Assembly: GCA_964291315.2 (NCBI GenBank)
Contig: OZ219753.1
Coordinates: forward strand, 1,312,001 to 1,376,000
Source: Candidatus Poribacteria bacterium
GTDB taxonomy: Bacteria; Poribacteria; WGA-4E; WGA-3G
Direction of reading: 5' to 3'
DNA length: 64,000 nucleotides
The first letter of the stretch is position 1. Each line of letters begins with the position of its first letter. This document shows, piece by piece, positions 1 through 31,716 of this stretch. A program made the translations under genes and the position numbers. Below the pieces are notes generated by a model, which saw nothing but the letters and a program-made list of their open reading frames with translations, was not told the DNA's origin and searched no databases.

Positions 1-189
1 AATTGTCGAAAGTACGTTCCCGCAAATATGGGACATCCCCGTCCAATATATCTTCACAGAGAAGGCGGTCATCGTTGGCAGTAACCAATCAGCAACAGCT
101 AGTTAAAGGGTTTTCATGTAACAATTCAGAGCTTTCTAGGGCACGCCAAGCTTGGATAGATCGTCCACAAAGATACGCCCTATTGACTG

Positions 190-19259: not shown

Positions 19260-20051
19260 TTACGTGTCAGTTTTTAGGCGTTTGAGTTCAGCCAATGCGT
19301 CTGCGAGCTCTGCGTCTGCAGCGTCTGCGCGTGCATCGGCTTGTTGTCGTGCGTCTGCCTCTGTGGCTGCCCGTGCGTCTGCCTCTGCTGCCCGTGTTTC
19401 TGCGCGTTGTCGTGCTTTTGCCTCTGCTTGTGCCCGTGCATCGGCTTCTTGTGCCCGTGCATCGGCGTGTCTAACCCGTCTCTCCAAAGGCTCCAGCCAC
19501 ACCGAACGCACCGGATCATACAACCCGAGAACCCCATCACGCTCGCCTAACTCTAAACCCAGCACAACCGACGGCAGACGATCCCCCACAAAACCTATCT
19601 CCTCATACACACCATCAACAAGACGATACCCGAGAAAAGAAGGCGACACCTCACCATAAGGATCGTAAATGTAATACTCGCGCACCCCAAGCACCGACGC
19701 ATACAACTCACGCTTAGCAGTCAAGTCCTGCCGATAGGTGCTGCGACTCGCTAACTCTAAGATAAAATCAGGCGCCTGCCCCTCTTCCCAGACCCGATAG
19801 GTGCGCCGCTGCTTTTTACTCACCCCGAAGACAACAAACACATCTGGCGACACCGATTTCCTCGGGTTCCCCTCCTCATAATACAGCATGAGATTGCCAG
19901 AGACATATGCGTCGTTGACATCTTGGAAGTGGTGCTCCAGCATCTGAATGCAGTCGATCATAAGTTTTCTGTGTTTGTCGGTTTCTGCCATAGGTTTATC
20001 GTCCGATTCGGGATAGACGAGCGTTGGAGCGGCTTTTATTTTGCTACACAT
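19260..20051 (-). CDS. Uma2/DUF820 endonuclease (copy 2, 7 heptads)
   Basis: Near-identical to copy 1. Confidence 0.9.
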   Translation of the reverse strand: MCSKIKAAPTLVYPESDDKPMAETDKHRKLMIDCIQMLEHHFQDVNDAYVSGNLMLYYEEGNPRKSVSPDVFVVFGVSKKQRRTYRVWEEGQAPDFILELASRSTYRQDLTAKRELYASVLGVREYYIYDPYGEVSPSFLGYRLVDGVYEEIGFVGDRLPSVVLGLELGERDGVLGLYDPVRSVWLEPLERRVRHADARAQEADARAQAEAKARQRAETRAAEADARAATEADARQQADARADAADAELADALAELKRLKTDT

Positions 20052-20168
20052 AGGTCTGCCTCCTGCCTCTACTATCGTAATGAACTTATAGAATAAAGTA
20101 TATCAGCAAAAGCTGGATATATCAAGTGGCTGATCTCAATAATTATCAAGGTTGCGTTGGGTATATGA

Positions 20169-20939
20169 TTACGTGTCAGTTTTTAGGCGTTTGAGTTCAG
20201 CCAATGCGTCTGCGAGCTCTGCGTCTAAAGCGTCTGCGCGTGCATCGGCTTGTTGTCGTGCGTCTGCCTCTGCTTGTGCTCGTGCATCAGCCTCTTGCCG
20301 GGCTCTTGCCTCTGCTTGCGCCCGTGCATCGGCTTCTTGTGCTCGTGCATCGGCGTGTCTAACCCGTCTCTCCAAAGGCTCCAGCCACGCTGAACGAACA
20401 GGATCATAAAATCCCAGTCGCCCCGCACGCTCGCCTAACTCTAAACCCAGCACAACCGACGGCAGACGACCGTTCACGAAGCCTATCTCCTCATACACGC
20501 CATCAACAAGACGATACCCGAGAAAAGAAGGCGACACCTCACCATAAGGATCGTAAATGTAATACTCGCGCACCCCAAGCACCGAGGCATACAACTCACG
20601 CTTAGCAGTCAAGTCCTGCCTATACGTGCTGCGACTCGCTAACTCTAAGATAAAATCAGGTGCCTGCCCCTCTTCCCAGACCCGATAGGTGCGCCGCTGC
20701 TTTTTACTCACCCCGAAGACAACAAACACATCTGGCGACACCGATTTCCTCGGGTTGCCCTCCTCATAATACAGCATGAGATTGCCAGAGACATATGCGT
20801 CGTTGACATCTTGGAAGTGGTGCTCCAGCATCTGAATGCGGTCGATCATAAGTTTTCTGTGTTTGTCGGTTTCTGCCATAGGTTTATCGTCCGATTCGGG
20901 ATAGACGAGCGTTGGAGCGGCTTTTATTTTGCTACACAT
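20169..20939 (-). CDS. Uma2/DUF820 endonuclease (copy 3, 6 heptads)
   Basis: Near-identical to copy 1; ERAGRLGFY block shared with copy 4. Confidence 0.9.
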   Translation of the reverse strand: MCSKIKAAPTLVYPESDDKPMAETDKHRKLMIDRIQMLEHHFQDVNDAYVSGNLMLYYEEGNPRKSVSPDVFVVFGVSKKQRRTYRVWEEGQAPDFILELASRSTYRQDLTAKRELYASVLGVREYYIYDPYGEVSPSFLGYRLVDGVYEEIGFVNGRLPSVVLGLELGERAGRLGFYDPVRSAWLEPLERRVRHADARAQEADARAQAEARARQEADARAQAEADARQQADARADALDAELADALAELKRLKTDT

Positions 20940-21056
20940 AGGTCTGCCTCCTGCCTCTACTATCGTAATGAACTTATAGAATAAAGTATATCAGCAAAAG
21001 CTGGATATATCAAGTGGCTGATCTCAATAATTATCAAGGTTGCGTTGGGTATATGA

Positions 21057-21890
21057 TTACGTGTCAGTTTTTAGGCGTTTGAGTTCAGCCAATGCGTCTG
21101 CGAGCTCTGCGTCTGCAGCGGCTGCGCGTGCATCGGCGTGTTGTCGTGCTTTTGCCTCTGCTTGTGCCCTGGCATCAGCCTCTTGTCGTGCTTTTGCCTC
21201 TGTGGCTGCGCGTGCATCGGCCTCTGCGGCCCTGGCATCGGCGTGTTGTCGTGCTTTTGCCTCTGCTTGCGCCCGTGCATCGGCTTCTTGTGCTCGTGCA
21301 TCGGCAGTCTGCAGCCATACCGAACGAACAGGGTCATAAAATCCCAGTCGCCCCGCACGCTCGCCTAACTCTAAACCCAGCACAAGCGACGGCAGACGAC
21401 CTTCCAAGAAGCCTATCTCCTCATACGCACCGTCCACAAGACGATACCCGAGAAAAGAAGGCGACACCTCGCCATAAGGATCGTAAATATAATACTCACG
21501 CACCCCAAGCACCGATGCATACAACTCACGCTTAGCAGTCAAGTCCTGCCTGTAGGTGCTTGGACTCGCCAACTCTAAGACAAAATTAGGCGCGTGTCCC
21601 TCTTCCCAGACGCGATAGGTGCGCCGATCCTGTTTGCTGACGCCGAAGACAACGAACACATCCGGAGACACGGATTTCTTAGGGTTTCCCTCTTCATAAT
21701 ACAGCATCAGATTGCCAGAGACATATACATCGTTGACCTTGCGGAAGTGGTGATTGAGTTTCTGAATGCAATCCATCATGAGGCTTCTGTGTTTATCAGT
21801 TTCTGCCATAGGTTTACCGTCCGATTCGGGATAGAGGATCGTTGGGTCTGGGTAGACCAACGTTGGAACGGCTTTTATGCTTCTCGGCAT
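21057..21890 (-). CDS. Uma2/DUF820 endonuclease (copy 4, divergent N-terminus, 9 heptads)
   Basis: Same motifs; start MPRSIKAVPTLVYPDPTILYPES; different upstream spacer. Confidence 0.9.
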   Translation of the reverse strand: MPRSIKAVPTLVYPDPTILYPESDGKPMAETDKHRSLMMDCIQKLNHHFRKVNDVYVSGNLMLYYEEGNPKKSVSPDVFVVFGVSKQDRRTYRVWEEGHAPNFVLELASPSTYRQDLTAKRELYASVLGVREYYIYDPYGEVSPSFLGYRLVDGAYEEIGFLEGRLPSLVLGLELGERAGRLGFYDPVRSVWLQTADARAQEADARAQAEAKARQHADARAAEADARAATEAKARQEADARAQAEAKARQHADARAAAADAELADALAELKRLKTDT

Positions 21891-21966
21891 GGCACTACCT
21901 CCTGTCTCTCTTGTTGTAATGAACTTATTGTATAGAGTTTATCCATACTGTTTGATCACGGAATCA

Positions 21967-22800
21967 TTATTTTTCAGTTTTCAGGCGTTTTATTTCAGCC
22001 AATGCGTCTGCGAGCTCTGCGTCTGCAGCTGCTGCGCGTGCATCGGCTTGTTGTCGTGCTTTTGCCTCTGCTTGTGCCCTGGCATCAGCCTCTTGTCGTG
22101 CTTTTGCCTCTGTGGCTGCCCGTGCATCGGCCTCTGCGGCCCTGGCATCAGCCTCTTGTCGTGCTTTTGCCTCTGCTTGCGCCCTGGCATCAGCTTCTTG
22201 TGCCCGTGCATCAGCGTGTCTAACCTGTTTATCCAAAGGCTCCAGCCATACCGAACGAACAGGATCATACAACCCGAGAACCCCATCACGCTCGCCTAAC
22301 TCTAAACCCAGCACAAGCGACGGCAGACGATCCCCCGCAAAATCTATCTCCTCATACACACCATCAACAAGACGATACCCGAGAAAAGAGGGCGACACCT
22401 CGCCATAAGGATCGTAAATGTAATACTCACGCACCCCAAGCACCGAGGCATACAACTCACGCTTAGCAGTCAAGTCCTGCCGATAGGTGCTGCGACTCGC
22501 TAACTCTAACACAAAATCGGGCGCATGTCCCTCTTCCCAGACCCGATAGGTGCGCCGATCCTTTTTGCTGACCCCGAAGACAACAAACACATCTGGCGAT
22601 ACCGATTTCCTCGGGTTCCCCTCCTCATAATACAGCATGAGATTGCCAGAGACATATGCGTCGTTGACATCTTGGAAGTGGTGCTCCAGCATCTGAATGC
22701 AGTCGATCATAAGTTTTCTGTGTTTGTCGGTTTCTGCCATAGGTTTATCGTCCGATTCGGGATAGACGAGCGTTGGAGCGGCTTTTATTTTGCTACACAT
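21967..22800 (-). CDS. Uma2/DUF820 endonuclease (copy 5, 9 heptads)
   Basis: Same motifs; unique KTEK end. Confidence 0.9.
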
Positions 22801-22917
22801 AGGTCTGCCTCCTGCCTCTACTATCGTAATAAACTTATAGAATAAAGTATATCAGCGAAAGCTGGATATATCAAGTGGCTGATCTCAATAATTATCAAGG
22901 TTGCGTTGGGTATATGA

Positions 22918-23730
22918 TTACGTGTCAGTTTTTAGGCGTTTGAGTTCAGCCAATGCGTCTGCGAGCTCTGCGTCTAAAGCTTGTGCGCGTGCATCAGCCT
23001 CTTGCCGGGCTCTTGCCTCTGCGTCTGCGCGTGCATCGGCGTGTTGTCGTGCTTTTGCCTCTGCTTGTGCTCGGGCATCAGCCTCTTGCCGGGCTCTTGC
23101 CTCTGCTTGCGCCCTGGCATCGGCTTCTTGTGCCCGTGCATCAGCGTGTCTAACCTGTTTATCCAAAGGCTCCAGCCATACCGAACGAACAGGATCATAC
23201 AACCCGAGAACCCCATCACGCTCGCCTAACTCTAAACCTAGCACAAGCGACGGCAGACGACCGTTCACGAAGCCTATCTCCTCATACACGCCATCAACAA
23301 GACGATACCCGAGAAAAGAAGGCGACACCTCACCATAAGGATCGTAAATATAATACTCACGCACCCCAAGCACCGACGCATACAACTCCCGCTTAGCAGT
23401 CAAGTCCTGCCGATAGGTGCTGCGACTCGCTAACTCTAACACAAAATCGGGAGCGTGTCCCTCTTCCCAGACCCGATAGGTGCGCCGATCCTTTTTGCTG
23501 ACCCCGAAGACAACAAACACATCTGGCGATACCGATTTCCTGGGGTTCCCCTCCTCATAATACATCATGAGATTGCCAGAGACATATGCGTCGTTGACAT
23601 CTTGGAAGTGGTGCTCCAGCATCTGAATGCAGTCGATCATAAGTTTTCTGTGTTTGTCGGTTTCTGCCATAGGTTTATCGTCCGATTCGGGATAGACGAG
23701 CGTTGGAGCGGCTTTTATTTTGCTACACAT
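22918..23730 (-). CDS. Uma2/DUF820 endonuclease (copy 6, 8 heptads)
   Basis: Same motifs. Confidence 0.9.
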
Positions 23731-23798: not shown

Positions 23799-24269
23799 TT
23801 ATGGTTGGACTATTCGCTGTTGTTTGAGGGTCTCTATATCTGCTGCCAGCGCCTCGATCTGCTTTTCGAAGATGCGTTCTTTTCTAATGCGCCACATCAT
23901 TATCACCTGTGGCAGCCCTATAACGACCCCTATTATTACCATCAGCCACGTCATCATTTTTTCTATACCACCGATGCGTTCATTTACGCCGTCAATGCGT
24001 CCTTCTACGCCGTCAATGCGCCCATTTACAGCGTCTATGCGCCCTTCTACACCCTCGATGCGCCCGTTTACAGCGTCTATGCGCCCATTAAGGGCAGCGA
24101 CTTGAGTCTTTAGGGTCACGATGTCGGCTCTTATCGGCTTCAGCTCCTCGCTGAGCTCCTCTTTGATGATCAACCGTATCTTATTCAGATCGGCATCCGT
24201 TAACGCACAAAACACAGGCGAGGCAATCACAAAAAAGAGCACAGAGAGTATAAATACCTTTTGCATCAC
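23799..24269 (-). CDS. Membrane-anchored coiled-coil protein with 21-bp heptad repeats
   Basis: Signal peptide, repeated (V/L)(N/E)GRI(D/E)(A/G) heptads, TM helix WLMVIIGVVIGLP and a short C-terminal coil. Confidence 0.8.
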   Translation of the reverse strand: MMQKVFILSVLFFVIASPVFCALTDADLNKIRLIIKEELSEELKPIRADIVTLKTQVAALNGRIDAVNGRIEGVEGRIDAVNGRIDGVEGRIDGVNERIGGIEKMMTWLMVIIGVVIGLPQVIMMWRIRKERIFEKQIEALAADIETLKQQRIVQP

Positions 24270-24484: not shown

Positions 24485-24514
24485 TTGACTTTTTTTCTAA
24501 CGTCCGTGTATAAT
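24485..24514 (+). promoter_or_regulatory. Sigma70 promoter of the large secreted-protein gene
   Basis: TTGACT-N18-TATAAT. Confidence 0.65.
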
Positions 24515-24522
24515 ATAGGAAT

Positions 24523-24674
24523 ACCTTGTTGGGGCGGCACTGCTAGGTCCTGTGCTGACAGGAACTGCCGCCCTACCATCCTAGCAGGGGGTCAAAAACA
24601 AGGTCAGGGTAACCAGTTTTTTTCAAATCACAATAGACATCACGGCATGCGGAGACTCCGTGATAAACGTGATG
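24523..24674 (+). ncRNA. Candidate structured 5' leader RNA with a pseudoknot
   Basis: Four perfect helices (8, 8, 8 and 6 bp) within 82 nt, two of them crossing, plus alternative hairpins before the RBS. Confidence 0.55.
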
Positions 24675-24707
24675 CATTGACAAGACAAGGAGAAGGATAT
24701 TTTCTTT

Positions 24708-27700
24708 ATGAAAAACGTAATAACGCAAAAAATCGCCTTAAGCCTGCTGATAACGCTTGTATTAGCGTTCGGGGTGCCGGGAGGCGCAGACGCGATTACC
24801 AGGTTCACCAGAACCTCCAGCGACTACCCATTGGTAGCACCTCAAACAGACTTCACCATTCGGTTCGGAGTCACCTTTACCTCCACCTCCACCGATTCAG
24901 AGACGGCTCGGATTACAGTATCGGGAGGCTCTCTCAAGAAAGTAGGAAACTTTGACGCTTCTGGAACTACCCAAGATTTAACGGAGGGAGGAACCGCCGG
25001 CAAAGGACAGCTCCTCAGCTCTCACACATTAACCCTGACTTCCGGCGCAGCAGGCAAGATGAGCGTTACAATCTCGGATCGAACCTCCGGTGACAAAGCC
25101 AACGATTTGGTCTTTACGATCTACGTATCACCCGCTTTTACAAGTACTAACGCTCCGGCCTTCAGCAGCAGCTCTGTTACGACCGCTAGAGGGGATGTAA
25201 AATTTTCAACCTCAACGCCGCTAACCCTTAGCGGGGAGCACATCCGATTAAACTATAGGGTTACAGGTAACGGATCCGTCTTTATCAAAGAAGATGGCAA
25301 GGACGCAGGTACCACTTCAAAAAACCTGACCACATCTTCCGCGGCACCTGTCTATGTTCGTATGGGGGGAGGTACTAACAGAATAGCTATCTCTATTGTT
25401 GGTCAAAGAGCTAGCTCAACCATACAGGCTACCTATATCTATGGGGAGGAAACGGTACAAATAGTATCTGGCGATAAGCAGACCGGCGCAGTAGGCTCGG
25501 CTCTCGGCCAGCCGTTCGTTGTTAGGCTGACAGATACTGCGAATCGGCCTATTTCTGGCGTAAACGTTACATTTGATCCAGAAACAACAGATAATGACGA
25601 AGCTGCAATATTCATAAAAGATCTCGGTACGCCCGACGATTTGCATGTTGCTTATGGTGCAGGCACTACTCCATTCACCACTACCCAAGGTCAAGCCGTA
25701 GTAAAAACCAATGCCAACGGCGAAGCCAAGGCTGTTTGGGTACTGCACCGGACTGCGCATGCCCTTGAGAATGTTGCCCATGCTCACCTGAGTGGGCGTT
25801 CTTCGGGAAGTAATGCTTCAGTTGCTTTTCAGGCAAGGGCTGTAGCAAAAAACCCGGTCGTGAGCTCTATTGTGATAGCATCCGGCAACGGGCAGAGCGC
25901 CGATCAATACGGAATCATCGCCAACCCTTTGGTGGTTAGCGTCCGAGATTCGGCCGGCCACTTGGTTAAAGGACAAACAGTGCTGTTCATCGCGTTAAGT
26001 GGCGGGACACTCAGTAACAGCTCAGACGAAGAGCCAGGGGCAGCCTCTGGCAGTAGCAGTGGTGCTAGTGTAACAGTCACAACAGATAACAGGGGTCAAG
26101 CCGGTGTTCGCTATGCGCCGTCGCAAGTCGGCGGAAGCCAGCAGGTGCGGGCGAGCATTACAGGGAGCGCCAGCTCCGTAACTTTTACTGTCAACGGCAC
26201 ACGAGGCACAACCCCAACTACACCTACAACTACACCCGATTCCACCACACCCTCGACCCCAACCACACCTCCGCCGACGGACGGCGGGATTGTCGCAAGT
26301 CGCCTCAGAGTGGTGAGCGGTAACCAGCAGACCGGTGCACCAGGGGCAGTGCTCAACCCGTTTGTCGTTCAACTCTTAGATACAGACGGCGACGGCATTG
26401 ATCTCGTGGAGATCGATTTTGAAGTTGTATCCGGGAGCGGCACGCTCTCTGATAGCATGGATCAGACCGATGAGAGTGGCAATGCACGCTCAACGCTCAC
26501 CCTCGGCAGTTCCGCTGGCACCGTAACCGTCCGGGTAAGCGTAGATTCCGATGAAATCGGGGGCCGTTCCATTTCCCCAGTCACCTTCACTGCAACGGCA
26601 GAGGTAACAACATTGCCACCCGATGCAATCAACATCGTCGGCGATGAAACGTTGACCGGCGATATCAACGAAGAGATAGAGCTCACCGTCCAAGTTGTAG
26701 ATGCAGATGAAGATGGGGTAGACTTCGAACTCGTCACGTTCACCGTCACTGAAGGAAACGGGAGACTTCGCCCCAGTAGAGATCGAACCGACGAGGATGG
26801 CAATGCATCGACCTTTTTCACGCCTACCTCCCCGGGAACGTTGGAAGTTCGAGCCAATTCAGGCGACCTGGATCCTGTCACTTTCACGATCACAACCTCC
26901 GATCCGCCTGACGCGATTACGATTATCTCCGGAAACAACCAGAGCGGTAGACCCGGGGCCAGACTTGCCAACCCGTTTGTCGTTAGAGTGACTGATGCCC
27001 TCGACGACCCAGTTGCTGGGGTGACAGTCTCATTTTCGGTGACCGCAGGCGGCGGTAGCCTCTCCACCCAGAGCGCAACCACGAATAGCAACGGACGCGC
27101 ACAGGCAGTGCTGACCCTCGGCGCTGACTCCGGCAATAACACCGTCACTGCACGTGTCACAGGGCTGACGCCTGTTACCTTCAGGGCGATGTCGGGGGCA
27201 GAAGTGCACGTGGCTGCCGCACAGCGCCCACCGATGTACTGGGTTGGTAGAGCCCAAGGCACGCTCCATCGCCTCGTCGGCGCCGCAGTTGAGAACCTCC
27301 TGCCGAATGTCACGGGTGTCACGGACATCGCAGTGGATGCAGCACAGGGAGCTCTCTATTTTGCTGTGAAAGTAGGTGAAAACAGAGGTTCCATCCGGAG
27401 TTCAGCCCTCAATGGACAGAACGTCAGGACTATCAAGACGTTGACGGCTGTCCCCAACGGAATCGCCGTTGACGCGGCAAGCCAGACGGTCTATTGGACA
27501 AACTCCCGCGGCCGAATCCAATCTATCCCTGCAACGGGGAGCTCCAAGCTCACCAACGAAGTACAGAATATCTCTAACCCGAGCGCAATTGCGGTTTACA
27601 ACCAATTTGTCTATTGGGTAGAGTTGAACCGGCTCCGCAGGGCCAGTCTCACTGCCACACCGCAGACGGCGGAAACGCTTGCAACGGCAGATGGCAATAT

Positions 27701-28667
27701 TGTGAGCATCGCCGTCGCCAAAGGCAAAATTTACTGGATCGAAAGCGGTGTAGGCGGACGGGGGACTCTCAAACGTTCCAACCTCGCAGGCAAGAACGTC
27801 GAAACCCTTAAAACCTTCGCCTCCAATGTACCCACTTCGGTAGCAGTGGATAGTTCAGACAACAAAATTTACTGGACGAAGGGCTCAGGTACAATCCAGC
27901 GCTCGAACCTCGCGGGTAAGTGGACGAAAAACATCGTTACCGGATTGGCTAACCCGAGTGCTATCGCGCTTGGCACAATAACAGACAACCCGACTCCTGC
28001 CCAGCCGGCATCTTTGATATCAGAGGGGACAACGCCTAAAAAACCAACCACCTCCAAATACGATGTCAATGGCGATGGCAGCGTGGACGATCAGGATGTC
28101 ACCCTTGTAGCACTCGCCCTTGACGGAAAATATAACGCAAAATACGACGTTAACGGTGACAAAGTGGTGGACGCAAAAGACCTCCGCGCAGTCATCAATA
28201 ACACAGAGGACACTTCCGCAGCACCCGCAATCAATCTAGACCTGAAGGCACTAGACATCGATTTCGATCGGGTTCAGGCACAGATTGAGAGCGTACTGGT
28301 ATCCGACGATATGTCGCCCTCAACGCGACGCACATTGATGTATCTCCAACACCTCTTGGCAACAGCGCGGCCCTCGGAGACAACGTTGTTAACCAACTAT
28401 CCGAACCCGTTCAACCCAGAAACTTGGATACCGTATCAATTGGCGGACAGCACCGAGGTGCGGATTAACATCTACGATGCCCAAGGCATCTTGATACGGG
28501 CATTGAACCTCGGGCATCAAACCGCGGGCTACTACACCCACCGGAGTCGCGCCGCGTATTGGGACGGACGCAACGCCCTCGGCGAACCGGTTGCGAGCGG
28601 TATCTACTTCTACCAGCTCCAAACCGATACAACCTCCCTTATGCGGAAAATGGTTATCTTGAAGTAG
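24708..28667 (+). CDS. Large secreted adhesin-like protein: Big_1 Ig repeats, LDL-receptor class B (YWTD) propeller, dockerin/EF-hand-like repeat, C-terminal FlgD/T9SS-like domain
   Basis: Signal peptide; repeated 'SGNNQSG..G..LANPFVVRV' modules; PT-rich linker; YWT/YWV/YWI repeats; DVNGDG/DVNGDK pair; LLTNYPNPFNPETWIPYQLA...SGIYFYQL...RKMVILK. Confidence 0.85.
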   Translation: MKNVITQKIALSLLITLVLAFGVPGGADAITRFTRTSSDYPLVAPQTDFTIRFGVTFTSTSTDSETARITVSGGSLKKVGNFDASGTTQDLTEGGTAGKGQLLSSHTLTLTSGAAGKMSVTISDRTSGDKANDLVFTIYVSPAFTSTNAPAFSSSSVTTARGDVKFSTSTPLTLSGEHIRLNYRVTGNGSVFIKEDGKDAGTTSKNLTTSSAAPVYVRMGGGTNRIAISIVGQRASSTIQATYIYGEETVQIVSGDKQTGAVGSALGQPFVVRLTDTANRPISGVNVTFDPETTDNDEAAIFIKDLGTPDDLHVAYGAGTTPFTTTQGQAVVKTNANGEAKAVWVLHRTAHALENVAHAHLSGRSSGSNASVAFQARAVAKNPVVSSIVIASGNGQSADQYGIIANPLVVSVRDSAGHLVKGQTVLFIALSGGTLSNSSDEEPGAASGSSSGASVTVTTDNRGQAGVRYAPSQVGGSQQVRASITGSASSVTFTVNGTRGTTPTTPTTTPDSTTPSTPTTPPPTDGGIVASRLRVVSGNQQTGAPGAVLNPFVVQLLDTDGDGIDLVEIDFEVVSGSGTLSDSMDQTDESGNARSTLTLGSSAGTVTVRVSVDSDEIGGRSISPVTFTATAEVTTLPPDAINIVGDETLTGDINEEIELTVQVVDADEDGVDFELVTFTVTEGNGRLRPSRDRTDEDGNASTFFTPTSPGTLEVRANSGDLDPVTFTITTSDPPDAITIISGNNQSGRPGARLANPFVVRVTDALDDPVAGVTVSFSVTAGGGSLSTQSATTNSNGRAQAVLTLGADSGNNTVTARVTGLTPVTFRAMSGAEVHVAAAQRPPMYWVGRAQGTLHRLVGAAVENLLPNVTGVTDIAVDAAQGALYFAVKVGENRGSIRSSALNGQNVRTIKTLTAVPNGIAVDAASQTVYWTNSRGRIQSIPATGSSKLTNEVQNISNPSAIAVYNQFVYWVELNRLRRASLTATPQTAETLATADGNIVSIAVAKGKIYWIESGVGGRGTLKRSNLAGKNVETLKTFASNVPTSVAVDSSDNKIYWTKGSGTIQRSNLAGKWTKNIVTGLANPSAIALGTITDNPTPAQPASLISEGTTPKKPTTSKYDVNGDGSVDDQDVTLVALALDGKYNAKYDVNGDKVVDAKDLRAVINNTEDTSAAPAINLDLKALDIDFDRVQAQIESVLVSDDMSPSTRRTLMYLQHLLATARPSETTLLTNYPNPFNPETWIPYQLADSTEVRINIYDAQGILIRALNLGHQTAGYYTHRSRAAYWDGRNALGEPVASGIYFYQLQTDTTSLMRKMVILK

Positions 28668-29550: not shown

Positions 29551-31716
29551 TTGTCACGGAGTATCCAAATGAGATGTGTCACTAACGTCTTGATAGCGCT
29601 TCTGTTTCTGATTAACCCTATCGGGCATTCACAATCCGATAACCGTATTGTAGCTTTTGATTGTCCAAAACTGCCGACTTCTGAATTCAATTTCGATGTA
29701 GATAGCCAAGTTATCGCGCTTTTAATGGAGGACCCAACCTCGGATATACCACCGTTGTTTAACACTATCGATGTTCTCTCCCTGCGCAGCTATCGAGGGC
29801 AGTCCGTCAGTTTCAAGGACATCGTTGAATATTATCAAGATATTCTAGAAGCGCGCCAGTGGCACGTTTTAAGACTCCCCGCCGAAGATGATTTAGAAAG
29901 TGCCACTTTGCATCTCTATGTCCTCCAAGAAAACGACACTGTTTACGGGATCTTTGCTATGATAAAAAGCACCGATACAGTGTACCTCATAAACATCACG
30001 GGTGCGATCCCGGAAGAGCAGCTAGGTGCCTTGCTCACAGGTCTCAATAAACTCAGTATTGAAATCCCGGAGCTCATGTCCCTGAATTCTGAGAGTGTGA
30101 AAGCTGCGCGAGCGGAAACATCAATGCCTGCTCAAACTGCCCCAGCAACGAGAACGCCTTCTGTTACACCGCGCGAGACTCCGCCGCTTACGCGAACTGT
30201 CTCACTCCTAAGATCTATGACTATCTCAGCGGCGGGCAGTAGCCCTGTCTACGAATCAATACCTGACACGTTAGTCGGGCAGAAAAACGACCTACAGGCT
30301 TCAAAAAACATCCCCCGTTTTTGGGCTGGCGACGTGCCTATCCACGCTATACGAATCCGGGGAAACCAGAAAATTTCAGAACAGGTCATCCGACAGACAC
30401 TCGAAAATAGTCAGTCGCCTGACCTCTCAAAAGCGCTGGAGACCCTCTTTAAAGCGGCTCCCTATTTTAAAGAGATCGCTTTACAAGTAGATAAGGAAAG
30501 TTCGAAATATATCGCCACAATTACGTTTAGTGAAAAACTGCTTTCTACCGGTGTATACCTCGGCTTCCACCGCCAACTGCGTCTCGGTTTCAACCGAGTG
30601 ACAGGCTGGGAGATCGGGGCAACAGGTATTGAATTCGGTAAAAGAGAGAATGTCGGTCCGTTTTGGGTGTGGAACCTCAGCGATTCAGTCAGTGATCGCA
30701 CCCACAAACTCTTTGGAGAGGCCAATTATGTCTTCGGCAACCCGCGTTTTCACTACCGTTTGGGTGGAACGGCGAATTGGGGGAAGCTTCATACGTGGAG
30801 CCTCGGACTCACCGCACAAATTCACCGTTTGACAGATGTCGTTGCCCCTGAACTCTTTCCGAACATGCCGCTCCCTAATTTTCAACGGACTATCGGGGCA
30901 CCGGACCTTCAAAATTACTATCTTCGCCAAGGTGCCGAGATCGCGATGCGATGGTCACCCGAAATGCCGCTTCACACGTTCAAAATGACAATGCTTGCAG
31001 AGTCACAGTCGAGCCTACAGAAAAGCACAGATTGGTTTCTCACGAATTGGAGCTCAACCTACACTGTCAGGGAAAACCCACCAATACGCCCCGGGAAAAT
31101 GCGAAGCATCGCCTTCCAATACGATTTTCGGGACCTGAAAAGAAGATCTTTGGGATGGCAGAATACCCTCCTCATCGAACATAGCAATACTCGCTTTGGA
31201 TCCGACTTCGATTTTACACGTTTGCTCTTACACCTCCGGTACGCTTTTCCGCTCGGGGATCACCGAGTGCGCACCCGATTTCTTTTCGGGTTCTCCAACA
31301 GATCACTTCCCGTTCAACGCCAATTTGTTATAAATGGGATAGCGGGACTCCGCGGATATCCTTGGTACAGAGAAGAAAATGAACCCGAAGGTTTTATGAA
31401 TTACAAGTTCGGGCACACCGTTTCTCCCTATGCCTTTGCGGGAGACCGCGGGTTTCTACTCAACGTTGAATATCACCACAGCTTAGCAACCCTATTGAGG
31501 TGGAGTTTTTTCAAAACTGCGTTCGCGATTATCTTCTTAGACGAAGGACAAGTTTGGCATGTATCCGGCCCGGCGTATACTTTCAATCCCAAAGGGAACA
31601 TCGGCATCGGTGCACAGATGTTAGTCGGTATTTTCCTTCTCCGAGCCAACATCGCAAAAGCCTTTGAGTCCGGAAAAGGGTTTCAAGTTACGACGGTTTT
31701 AAACCACCCGTTTTAG
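29551..31716 (+). CDS. Outer-membrane protein: DUF4252-like N-terminus, POTRA-like domain and BamA/TamA-like barrel
   Basis: Signal peptide; 'IRIRGNQKISEQVI' POTRA-like segment; LRGY motif; amphipathic strands; terminal Phe. Confidence 0.65.
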   Translation: MSRSIQMRCVTNVLIALLFLINPIGHSQSDNRIVAFDCPKLPTSEFNFDVDSQVIALLMEDPTSDIPPLFNTIDVLSLRSYRGQSVSFKDIVEYYQDILEARQWHVLRLPAEDDLESATLHLYVLQENDTVYGIFAMIKSTDTVYLINITGAIPEEQLGALLTGLNKLSIEIPELMSLNSESVKAARAETSMPAQTAPATRTPSVTPRETPPLTRTVSLLRSMTISAAGSSPVYESIPDTLVGQKNDLQASKNIPRFWAGDVPIHAIRIRGNQKISEQVIRQTLENSQSPDLSKALETLFKAAPYFKEIALQVDKESSKYIATITFSEKLLSTGVYLGFHRQLRLGFNRVTGWEIGATGIEFGKRENVGPFWVWNLSDSVSDRTHKLFGEANYVFGNPRFHYRLGGTANWGKLHTWSLGLTAQIHRLTDVVAPELFPNMPLPNFQRTIGAPDLQNYYLRQGAEIAMRWSPEMPLHTFKMTMLAESQSSLQKSTDWFLTNWSSTYTVRENPPIRPGKMRSIAFQYDFRDLKRRSLGWQNTLLIEHSNTRFGSDFDFTRLLLHLRYAFPLGDHRVRTRFLFGFSNRSLPVQRQFVINGIAGLRGYPWYREENEPEGFMNYKFGHTVSPYAFAGDRGFLLNVEYHHSLATLLRWSFFKTAFAIIFLDEGQVWHVSGPAYTFNPKGNIGIGAQMLVGIFLLRANIAKAFESGKGFQVTTVLNHPF

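Follow-up and report, generated by a model that had tools for sequence, protein, structure and literature searches.

What RNA stands at the head of a giant secreted-protein gene in Candidatus Poribacteria, and does it serve that gene alone? The question arises in a 64,000-nucleotide (nt) stretch of contig OZ219753.1 (assembly GCA_964291315.2, positions 1,312,001 to 1,376,000 of the forward strand; the window, in what follows), where a sequence-only reading had placed a pseudoknotted 5′ leader RNA between a promoter and a gene for a protein of 1319 amino acids (aa), and had taken it for a regulator of that gene. The pseudoknotted RNA directly 3′ of the promoter proved genuine: its helices covary in 103 related copies, and the promoter lies at 24485-24514. 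Positions 24523-24611, or 24523-24623 with the run of Ts included, encode an RNA of ~100 nt that begins at the transcript's first nucleotides. The RNA is not reserved for the giant secreted protein: the element is one of an undescribed family of RNAs, which has several copies per genome and was confirmed in Poribacteria alone, and the hundreds of copies found there precede at least 30 unrelated gene families.

Direct reading of the sequence showed that the pairings proposed for helices A, B and C and for hairpin H are all present, position for position, and perfectly complementary. In order along the transcript, the element consists of:

24523-24530, plus strand: helix A, 5′ strand (ACCTTGTT), the transcript's first nucleotides
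24531-24539, plus strand: helix B, 5′ strand (G-GGGCGGCA; core strand 24532-24539)
24540-24547, plus strand: helix C, 5′ strand (CTGCTAGG), the pseudoknot helix, with zero linker after B
24548-24563, plus strand: hairpin H (TCCTGT-GCTG-ACAGGA; stem 24548-24553 with 24558-24563, loop GCTG)
24566-24574, plus strand: helix B, 3′ strand (TGCCGCCC-T; core strand 24566-24573)
24575-24579, plus strand: junction J from B3 to C3 (ACCAT here, consensus CCCAC; two of five positions deviate)
24580-24587, plus strand: helix C, 3′ strand (CCTAGCAG)
24588-24596, plus strand: G-run and A-rich linker (GGGG-TCA-AA here; family consensus from the alignment GGGG-AUA-AA)
24597-24604, plus strand: repeat 1, the 3′ strand of helix A (AACAAGGT)
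24605-24611, plus strand: repeat 2 (CAGGGTA), complementary to the 5′ end TACCTTG at 24522-24528; alternative helix A′
24617-24623, plus strand: T7 run, where the conserved unit stops in class I copies (those of the window's type); not a canonical terminator

Helix C (24540-24547 with 24580-24587) crosses helix B, which can itself be extended by the pair G24531-T24574. The fold is thus a nested double pseudoknot: A closes the domain, B and C cross, and H lies between them. The strand order is that of the hepatitis delta virus (HDV) ribozyme and implies that A stacks on B and C on H, the two stacks lying side by side. The nested part of the fold over 24520-24710 has a free energy of -61.7 kcal/mol (z = -2.91), and none of 200 shuffles was as stable.

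Where does the transcript start? The region holds six promoter-like sites, versus 1.7 expected, and the relevant one is near consensus:

24485-24514, plus strand: sigma-70-type promoter (-35 TTGACT at 24485-24490, 18-nt spacer, -10 TATAAT at 24509-24514; 11 of 12 consensus positions)

This promoter sets the predicted transcript start at ~24520-24522, 1-3 nt before helix A. The same spacing recurs across the family. Among the 102 copies with enough upstream sequence, 82 carry the pattern TTGnnn-16..18-TAnnnT ending 4-8 nt (mostly 6) before helix A, versus 1 of 612 control anchors, and a -10 box is still visible in several of the 20 copies that miss the pattern. No promoter is seen before the copies of three genomes (G024, G006 and G119). 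Family copies stand before many unrelated genes and bring a strong promoter with them.

We wondered how far the conserved unit extends. BLAST searches of 61 related genomes gave four real matches, in G024 and G006 (E = 1.3e-23), in G032 (3.8e-18) and, as a partial match, in G021 (4.3e-5), all of which span only query positions 6-111, or window 24520-24625. Because homology is confined to this interval, the conserved unit runs from the transcript start to the T-run and does not include a strand further downstream, CATCACGG, to which we return below. The annotation was corrected accordingly: the unit spans 24523-24623 and does not belong to the downstream gene in particular. A second copy in the window's own genome was found neither by BLAST of 24515-24710 nor by a covariance model at E ≤ 1.

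Covariance models extended the family considerably. A model built from four sequences with helices A, B and H only (R1) had matches in 60 of 65 genus genomes at E ≤ 0.1, with up to nine copies each. A second model, built from 30 copies and with helix C left single-stranded (R2), matched 93 of the 151 genomes of an order sample at E ≤ 0.01, for a total of 373 matches: 85 of 103 genomes in family f1, 7 of 29 in f3, 0 of 11 in f2 and 0 of 7 in f4. In a phylum sample at E ≤ 0.001 the figures were 79 of 99 for f1, 6 of 26 for f3 and 0 of 25 for f2 and f4-f9 together. These scans are samples, and absence means not found among the genomes searched. A pattern scan of genome contigs caught only copies with one extra base, which makes it no fair test of absence beyond Poribacteria: it gave 21 loci, and R2 confirmed the 8 in Poribacteria but, at E ≤ 1, none of the 13 in other phyla, as chance predicts. 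With the pattern corrected, viral contigs gave 0 loci and metagenome contigs 19, where R2 confirmed four matches on three contigs. Three further metagenome matches to R2 (15.7 bits) were treated as chance; the one inspected (L181) does not have complementary helix strands.

That the RNA is novel, as the sequence-only reading inferred, is supported by cmscan with all 4227 models of Rfam 15: none fell on the element at E ≤ 10 (the 2-kb stretch gave two weak chance matches, both further upstream), nothing reached the gathering score across the whole window, and five other family copies drew no model at E ≤ 1. A 2017 survey of 224 motifs reportedly included one called "Poribacteria-1"; if it is within Rfam 15, it does not match the element. 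Literature listings turned up no description of the leader family, supplementary motif lists lying outside that search.

Homologues with compensatory changes, on which the sequence-only reading had staked the element, are abundant. Alignment A5, made on R2, comprises 103 matches (102 distinct rows) found at 100 loci, among them 80 further copies taken from the higher-scoring R2 matches of the order sample; 223 weaker matches were left out. In the 102 rows, the four-helix structure has 92.7% of its cells standard-paired, versus 75.0% in shuffles, and 26 of its 31 pairs show changes on both sides. Compensated cells number 512 versus 149.5 in shuffles, and the covariation score is 0.483 versus 0.155, a value reached by 0 of 500 shuffles, although these counts are not probabilities because the aligned sequences are related. 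Control structures slid by 1-3 columns score 0.039-0.072. Helix by helix, the alignment reads:

Helix A: 87.5% of cells paired, 8 of 8 pairs compensated
Helix B: 94.0% of cells paired, 6 of 9 pairs compensated
Helix C: 96.1% of cells paired, 6 of 8 pairs compensated
Hairpin H: 93.3% of cells paired, 6 of 6 pairs compensated

Alignment A5 was fitted to A, B and H and so favours those helices. Helix C, on the contrary, is absent from the covariance model, and its covariation support is therefore independent. A 40-sequence alignment (A4) gave the same covariation picture. The most divergent copies (L102:1407-1523, L160 and L156) differ in every helix sequence yet keep the architecture. At two helix A pairs, U-G pairs occur in one orientation (33 and 36 of 102 rows), and such one-way G-U pairing is consistent with the plus strand being the RNA. 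A fifth helix, D, pairing a junction CUCCC with the G-run, was tried and rejected: 0 pairs were compensated and 74.6% of cells were paired, versus 74.9% in shuffles.

Conservation is not limited to pairing. The inner pairs of helix B, GGCA/UGCC, are nearly invariant, and unpaired bases are conserved in the CCCAC junction between B3 and C3 and in the GGGG-AUA-A stretch after C3. Junction, linker and inner pairs all persist in copies in which every helix has changed (L102:1407-1523 and L160). Hairpin H is free in sequence, with loops from 4 to ~21 nt across the family, the longer ones in G032-type copies.

A further regularity concerns helix A. Its 3′ strand is duplicated in tandem and both copies match the 5′ strand, AACAAGGT at 24597-24604 being followed by CAGGGTA at 24605-24611. 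The alternative helix A′, formed with repeat 2, has 73.3% of its cells paired versus 55.5% in shuffles and a covariation score of 0.387 versus 0.127, with 0 of 500 shuffles reaching 0.387. At least five contiguous complementary bases are found in 91 of the 103 tails (mean run 5.6, versus 4.3 for shuffled tails). Repeat 2 covaries with the 5′ strand in at least five sequence classes: TACCTTG/CAAGGTA, TGCCTTG/CAAGGCA, CCAGCT/AGCTGG, TCCAGT/ACTGGA and GTATCTCG/CGAGATAT. Median duplex energies are -8.3 kcal/mol for A and -6.3 kcal/mol for A′, and in the window copy -9.1 and -8.4.

The sequence-only reading had looked for a switch further down, where CATCACGG can pair with either CCGTGAT or CGTGATG. 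That arrangement is there, about one base below the positions it implied, but it is not conserved, as homology ends near 24623. On sequence comparison, the switch-like feature proper appears instead to be the tandem duplicate of the helix A 3′ strand at 24605-24611.

Which genes follow the element? For 123 copies we took as cargo the first ATG open reading frame (ORF) of at least 60 codons whose start falls in the interval from 45 nt upstream to 450 nt downstream of the match end, a crude rule that in the window selected a spurious 102-codon frame and not the real gene:

24708-28667, plus strand: downstream gene, 1319 aa, with a signal-peptide-like N-terminus, Big_1, YWTD (Ldl_recept_b), dockerin and a FlgD_ig/Por_Secre_tail C-terminus

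The rule assigned an ORF to 119 of the 123 copies. Small proteins of ~70-150 aa, typically with an MKTIL start, a signal or membrane segment and a coiled coil, account for 52 of the 119; 15 are DNA methylases, and 11 are large secreted proteins starting MNNLTTRKIVLG..., the group to which the window's gene belongs. The remainder fall into more than 30 small clusters. Pfam searches with cluster representatives identified N6_N4_Mtase, MethyltransfD12, BglII, MvaI_BcnI (two), DpnII, a Type ISP enzyme and SNF2/ResIII helicases; AbiTii, Hypoth_Ymh, NTP_transf_2, GIY-YIG/T5orf172 and FRG with TPR; and an RNA-polymerase alpha-CTD-like protein and an Exo_endo_phos protein with dockerin. Many cargo genes are thus restriction-modification or other defence genes.

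The position of the start codon separates the copies. In 54 of 103 copies, which between them cover 14 unrelated protein clusters, helix A is followed after 10-22 nt by an ATG ORF; the offset is 13 nt in 31 of the 35 small-protein copies that have one. For the remaining copies the ORF starts 25-463 nt downstream of helix A, or none was found. The window copy, of class I, has its start codon 103 nt further on, with its own Shine-Dalgarno (SD) sequence; in the nine class I copies counted, this distance ranges from 46 to 299 nt. All 12 class I copies among the 123 share the T-run after repeat 2, a further stretch of leader and a homologous secreted-protein gene in the same direction, and the N-terminus of the 1319-aa protein is homologous to the products of the genes behind other class I copies. 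Class I copies occur in both f1 and f3, which makes the pairing of RNA and secreted protein an old one.

Such cargo bears on one idea of what the RNA does, namely that it is a cis-acting anti-termination or anti-Rho element that modifies the transcribing RNA polymerase so that long or foreign genes are transcribed to their ends. The element lies directly behind the promoter, as that function would want, and it is followed by a 4-kb gene here and by horizontally mobile defence genes elsewhere; class I copies also have a conserved unstructured C/A-rich stretch and a U-run after the element. However, the commonest cargo, in 52 of 119 cases, is a single gene of ~100-150 codons that needs no anti-termination. 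The put RNAs of phage HK022, which modify polymerase in this way, consist of two simple stem-loops, and the leader has no structural likeness to them. We therefore consider anti-termination very unlikely.

What, then, is the RNA for? We propose, tentatively, that its most likely function is that of a cis-acting conformational switch. The 5′-terminal strand would be the mobile strand, able to pair with either of two adjacent and nearly equally stable 3′ repeats: with the first it would make helix A, with the second helix A′. Where the start codon comes 10-22 nt after helix A, as it does in about half of the family, repeat 2 would occupy roughly the place expected of a ribosome-binding site. Helix A would then keep that site accessible, and helix A′ would cover it. 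Some ligand or protein, bound by the folded core with its CCCAC junction, G-run and GGCA/UGCC pairs, would set the balance between the two. In class I the same toggle would have to act elsewhere, for instance on 5′-end stability or on transcript elongation.

Several observations weigh against such a switch. Repeat 2 is retained where no ORF follows immediately, both in class I copies and in copies before a ~300-nt non-coding repeat, so masking of a ribosome site cannot be its sole role, and the toggle leaves its own retention in these copies, the window's included, unexplained. In three copies (L151, L127 and L130) repeat 2 is not complementary, and the A′ covariation is partly carried by a few deep sequence classes of non-independent sequences. 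Repeat 2 resembles an SD only weakly (GGA or AGG); the 16S rRNA ends in the canonical CACCUCCUUUCU. The unpaired bases show more variation than riboswitches usually allow, and the window copy itself deviates from them, with ACCAT for CCCAC and GGGGTCA for GGGGATA. Finally, the cargo genes have no common metabolic or signalling theme by which to name a ligand.

In its operation the leader would be most like a translational riboswitch without a coherent regulon. With such riboswitches (for example the add adenine riboswitch) it shares a helix-closed core, two near-isoenergetic potential pairings for one strand and, in half of its copies, an adjacent putative ribosome-binding region at fixed spacing. 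It differs from them in its heterogeneous defence, mobile and surface genes, in starting exactly at +1 and in keeping the toggle where no ORF is adjacent. Pseudoknots next to or overlapping a translation start are also known from the leader of the Escherichia coli alpha (S4) operon and the 5′ end of T4 gene 32. Those are single-locus autoregulatory sites of translational control by a protein, whereas the leader is a dispersed family with hundreds of copies.

The start-codon spread and the non-coding cargo are not explained by a translation switch alone, and they fit a different function, a constitutive 5′-end stabiliser. The element would then be a portable expression cassette whose compact pseudoknot, its closing helix taking in the 5′-terminal nucleotides, shields the mRNA from 5′-initiated decay (by RNase E/G, RNase J and pyrophosphohydrolase) and which senses no signal. 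The distance from helix A to the start codon runs from 12 to 463 nt in the mRNAs that carry it, and non-coding repeats carry it too; its promoters are near consensus and its RNA starts at +1 in 82 of 102 copies; and genes for RNase J (501.7 bits, above the cut-off) and for RNase E/G (346 bits) are both present in the genome. The SD-like G-run might in addition capture a 30S subunit, which is what STAB-SD in the cryIIIA mRNA of Bacillus thuringiensis reportedly does, and the G-run forms GGGGG and GGAGG are complementary to CCUCC of the 16S tail. Other common forms of the G-run, GGCGG or AGUGG, pair poorly with the anti-SD, however, and a plain 5′ hairpin would suffice for protection. Known 5′-terminal stabilisers (the ompA 5′ hairpin and cryIIIA STAB-SD) do resemble the leader in having a structured very 5′ end, an SD-like purine run far from the start codon and unrelated cargo, but the leader is much more elaborate: covariation supports four helices, a pseudoknot is among them, the junction bases are conserved and one strand is doubled. 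A stabiliser leaves the duplicated 3′ strand, the conserved junction bases and the near-invariant GGCA/UGCC pairs unexplained, and we regard it as the main rival of the switch, possible but unlikely.

The strand order of the leader raises the question of catalysis. The sequence-only reading had likened it to the P1/P2/P3 topology of the HDV ribozyme while noting that the L3, P1.1 and P4 features were missing, and both points stand: the order B5-C5-H-B3-C3 is there, and those features are not. HDV-like ribozymes include HDV, CPEB3 and the drz families, among them minimal forms without P4. The leader shares with them the order P1-P2-P3-P3′-P1′-P2′, short or zero junctions, a C-rich strand before the last strand and a length of ~70-100 nt. 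It also differs from them. Hairpin H has 6-7 base pairs (bp), 6 of 6 of its pairs covary, and its loops are free (GCAA, GCAC, GCTG, ACAC and others), whereas P3 of HDV has ~3 bp and L3 has ~7 nt with conserved bases. There is no P1.1, the H loops sharing no conserved C-C or G-G positions, and P4 is absent. A closing helix A with a duplicated 3′ strand is extra. No conserved G-U closes the base of helix B (columns 18/91: AU in 15 of 102 rows, GU in 8, GC in 1, UA in 1, unpaired in 44, gapped in 33), and the junction Cs, the candidates for a catalytic C, each vary in some copies (CCTAC, TCCAC, CTCAC, CCGAC, and ACCAT in the window). Rfam ribozyme models do not match. The leader is therefore not a member of the HDV-like ribozyme family but may fold like one, and it is the sole non-HDV example of the HDV strand order that we can name.

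Could it nevertheless be a new class of self-cleaving ribozyme on the HDV fold? Cleavage near the A/B junction or in the 3′ linker would then yield an mRNA with a 5′-OH and both repeats freed. The strand order B5-C5-H5-H3-B3-C3, in which short or zero-length junctions force two side-by-side stacks, speaks for this, as does the C-rich junction before C3 (consensus CCCAC). The element also sits among mobile and defence genes, where small self-cleaving ribozymes are often found, and in G024 and G006, where it has no promoter and lies directly behind the terminator of the upstream gene, processing would make sense. Yet no model of the HDV family or of any other ribozyme matches the element at E ≤ 10 or five other copies at E ≤ 1; H, a hairpin of 6-7 bp with loops of free sequence, offers neither L3 nor P1.1; and the candidate catalytic C positions vary, the window having A and U at two of them. 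Moreover, with the RNA placed right at +1, 5′-side cleavage would trim off no more than ~8-10 nt. Self-cleavage is thus distinctly unlikely.

A broader reading is that the family is a new catalytic or signal-sensing RNA class on an HDV-type double-pseudoknot fold. The RNA would either cleave itself, as a ribozyme, or sense a signal of infection or stress, and it would be carried in a portable cassette of promoter and leader before restriction-modification, abortive-infection, TnpB and surface-protein genes, so that one device would govern much of the defence and surface repertoire. We hold this to be unlikely as a whole. If the RNA did sense a signal or cleave itself, it would reveal how symbionts coordinate defence with host-facing proteins, and such a compact module for expression, complete in itself, might find use in engineering. 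The family is a new class of RNA, though of a general type already known, the structured 5′ leaders; it sits exactly at transcript starts and is attached to anti-phage defence, TnpB-like and giant surface-protein genes of sponge symbionts from a phylum without cultivated members. It is rare by now to find a well-supported new class of pseudoknotted RNA that has hundreds of copies, and to our knowledge every past such class turned out to be a riboswitch, a ribozyme or part of a ribonucleoprotein.

Does the conserved unit end in a terminator? No terminator-like site was found at 24600-24623, and no stable hairpin abuts the T-run. When the 45-nt tails of 10 class I copies were folded, their structures were weak (-0.7 to -5.4 kcal/mol), with 5-8 unpaired nt between repeat 2 and the U-run. 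An intrinsic terminator, or an attenuator based on one, was rejected at this position because no G+C-rich hairpin abuts the U-run. The tail also bears on the idea that class I copies, and they only, encode a separate trans-acting small RNA of ~100 nt that ends at the T-run. Conservation does stop there, the element has its own promoter, and the distance to the start codon varies as given above for the nine class I copies. However, besides the missing hairpin, 12 of 12 class I copies lie upstream of the secreted-protein gene in the same direction, and copies outside class I are joined directly to the start codon. A separate small RNA is extremely unlikely.

Beyond the T-run, the window's leader has two further features of its own:

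24638-24674, plus strand: lineage-specific leader hairpin (CATCACGG at 24638-24645 with CCGTGAT at 24658-24664 or CGTGATG at 24668-24674)
24687-24710, plus strand: SD region and ATG of the 1319-aa gene (SD AAGGAGAAGGA)

The stretch 24624-24712 has a minimum free energy of -21.3 kcal/mol (z = -2.96), and its hairpin region is unalignable in the relatives found by BLAST. Four relatives of the window's type (L033, L029, L032 and L035) have direct GTTATAAG/GTTATC repeats in place of the CATCACGG hairpin and an inverted TTATAAC just 5′ of the SD (AGAGAGGTATATTTTTTCATG); these repeats are a second, lineage-variable leader element. In the window, the SD stretch AAGGAGAAG is predicted to pair with the U-rich UUUUCUUUAU right before the ATG (24687-24707), which would make a small SD-masking hairpin.

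Some copies are clustered. Five share a 60-kb stretch of one secondary contig (G031:C2, 288,641 bp, at 33.8-93.3 kb) and two on a 31-kb contig (G083:C2, 30,893 bp); elsewhere, two small-protein genes in tandem, 635 nt apart, each have their own promoter and leader (G004:C1, 1771645 and 1772280). A divergent subclass in which all helix sequences have changed comprises four copies on one Poribacteria chromosome (L156, L165, L168 and L171) together with L160, L170 and L102:1407-1523. Its copies precede ORFs that we take to be TnpB-like from their N-terminal sequence (362 aa in L170, cut to 112 aa in L160), and at four other places they precede a conserved non-coding repeat of ~300 nt whose flanks differ. 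By their sequence arrangement, these loci look like a mobile, possibly guide-RNA-bearing element.

The neighbours of the element in the window include one protein of a familiar kind. The divergent gene at 23799-24269 (minus strand) encodes a 156-aa protein of the MKTIL family, the commonest cargo of the leader in other genomes, with 28% identity to the ORF of L134 (E = 3e-13). It is of the signal, coiled-coil and C-terminal-membrane type and contains runs of 7-residue repeats (GRIDAVN, GRIEGVE and similar). The covariance model found no copy of the RNA family before this gene, whose own leader has an ordinary SD-like GAGGAG, seen by eye, and a promoter-like site at 24347-24319 (minus strand). 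Further upstream, 19260-23730 (minus strand) holds five tandem Uma2-family (PF05685) paralogues of 256-277 aa, two of which were scanned for domains. On the other side, ~0.9 kb 3′ of the giant secreted-protein gene, 29551-31716 (plus strand) encodes an Omp85-superfamily protein of 721 aa, a possible export partner.

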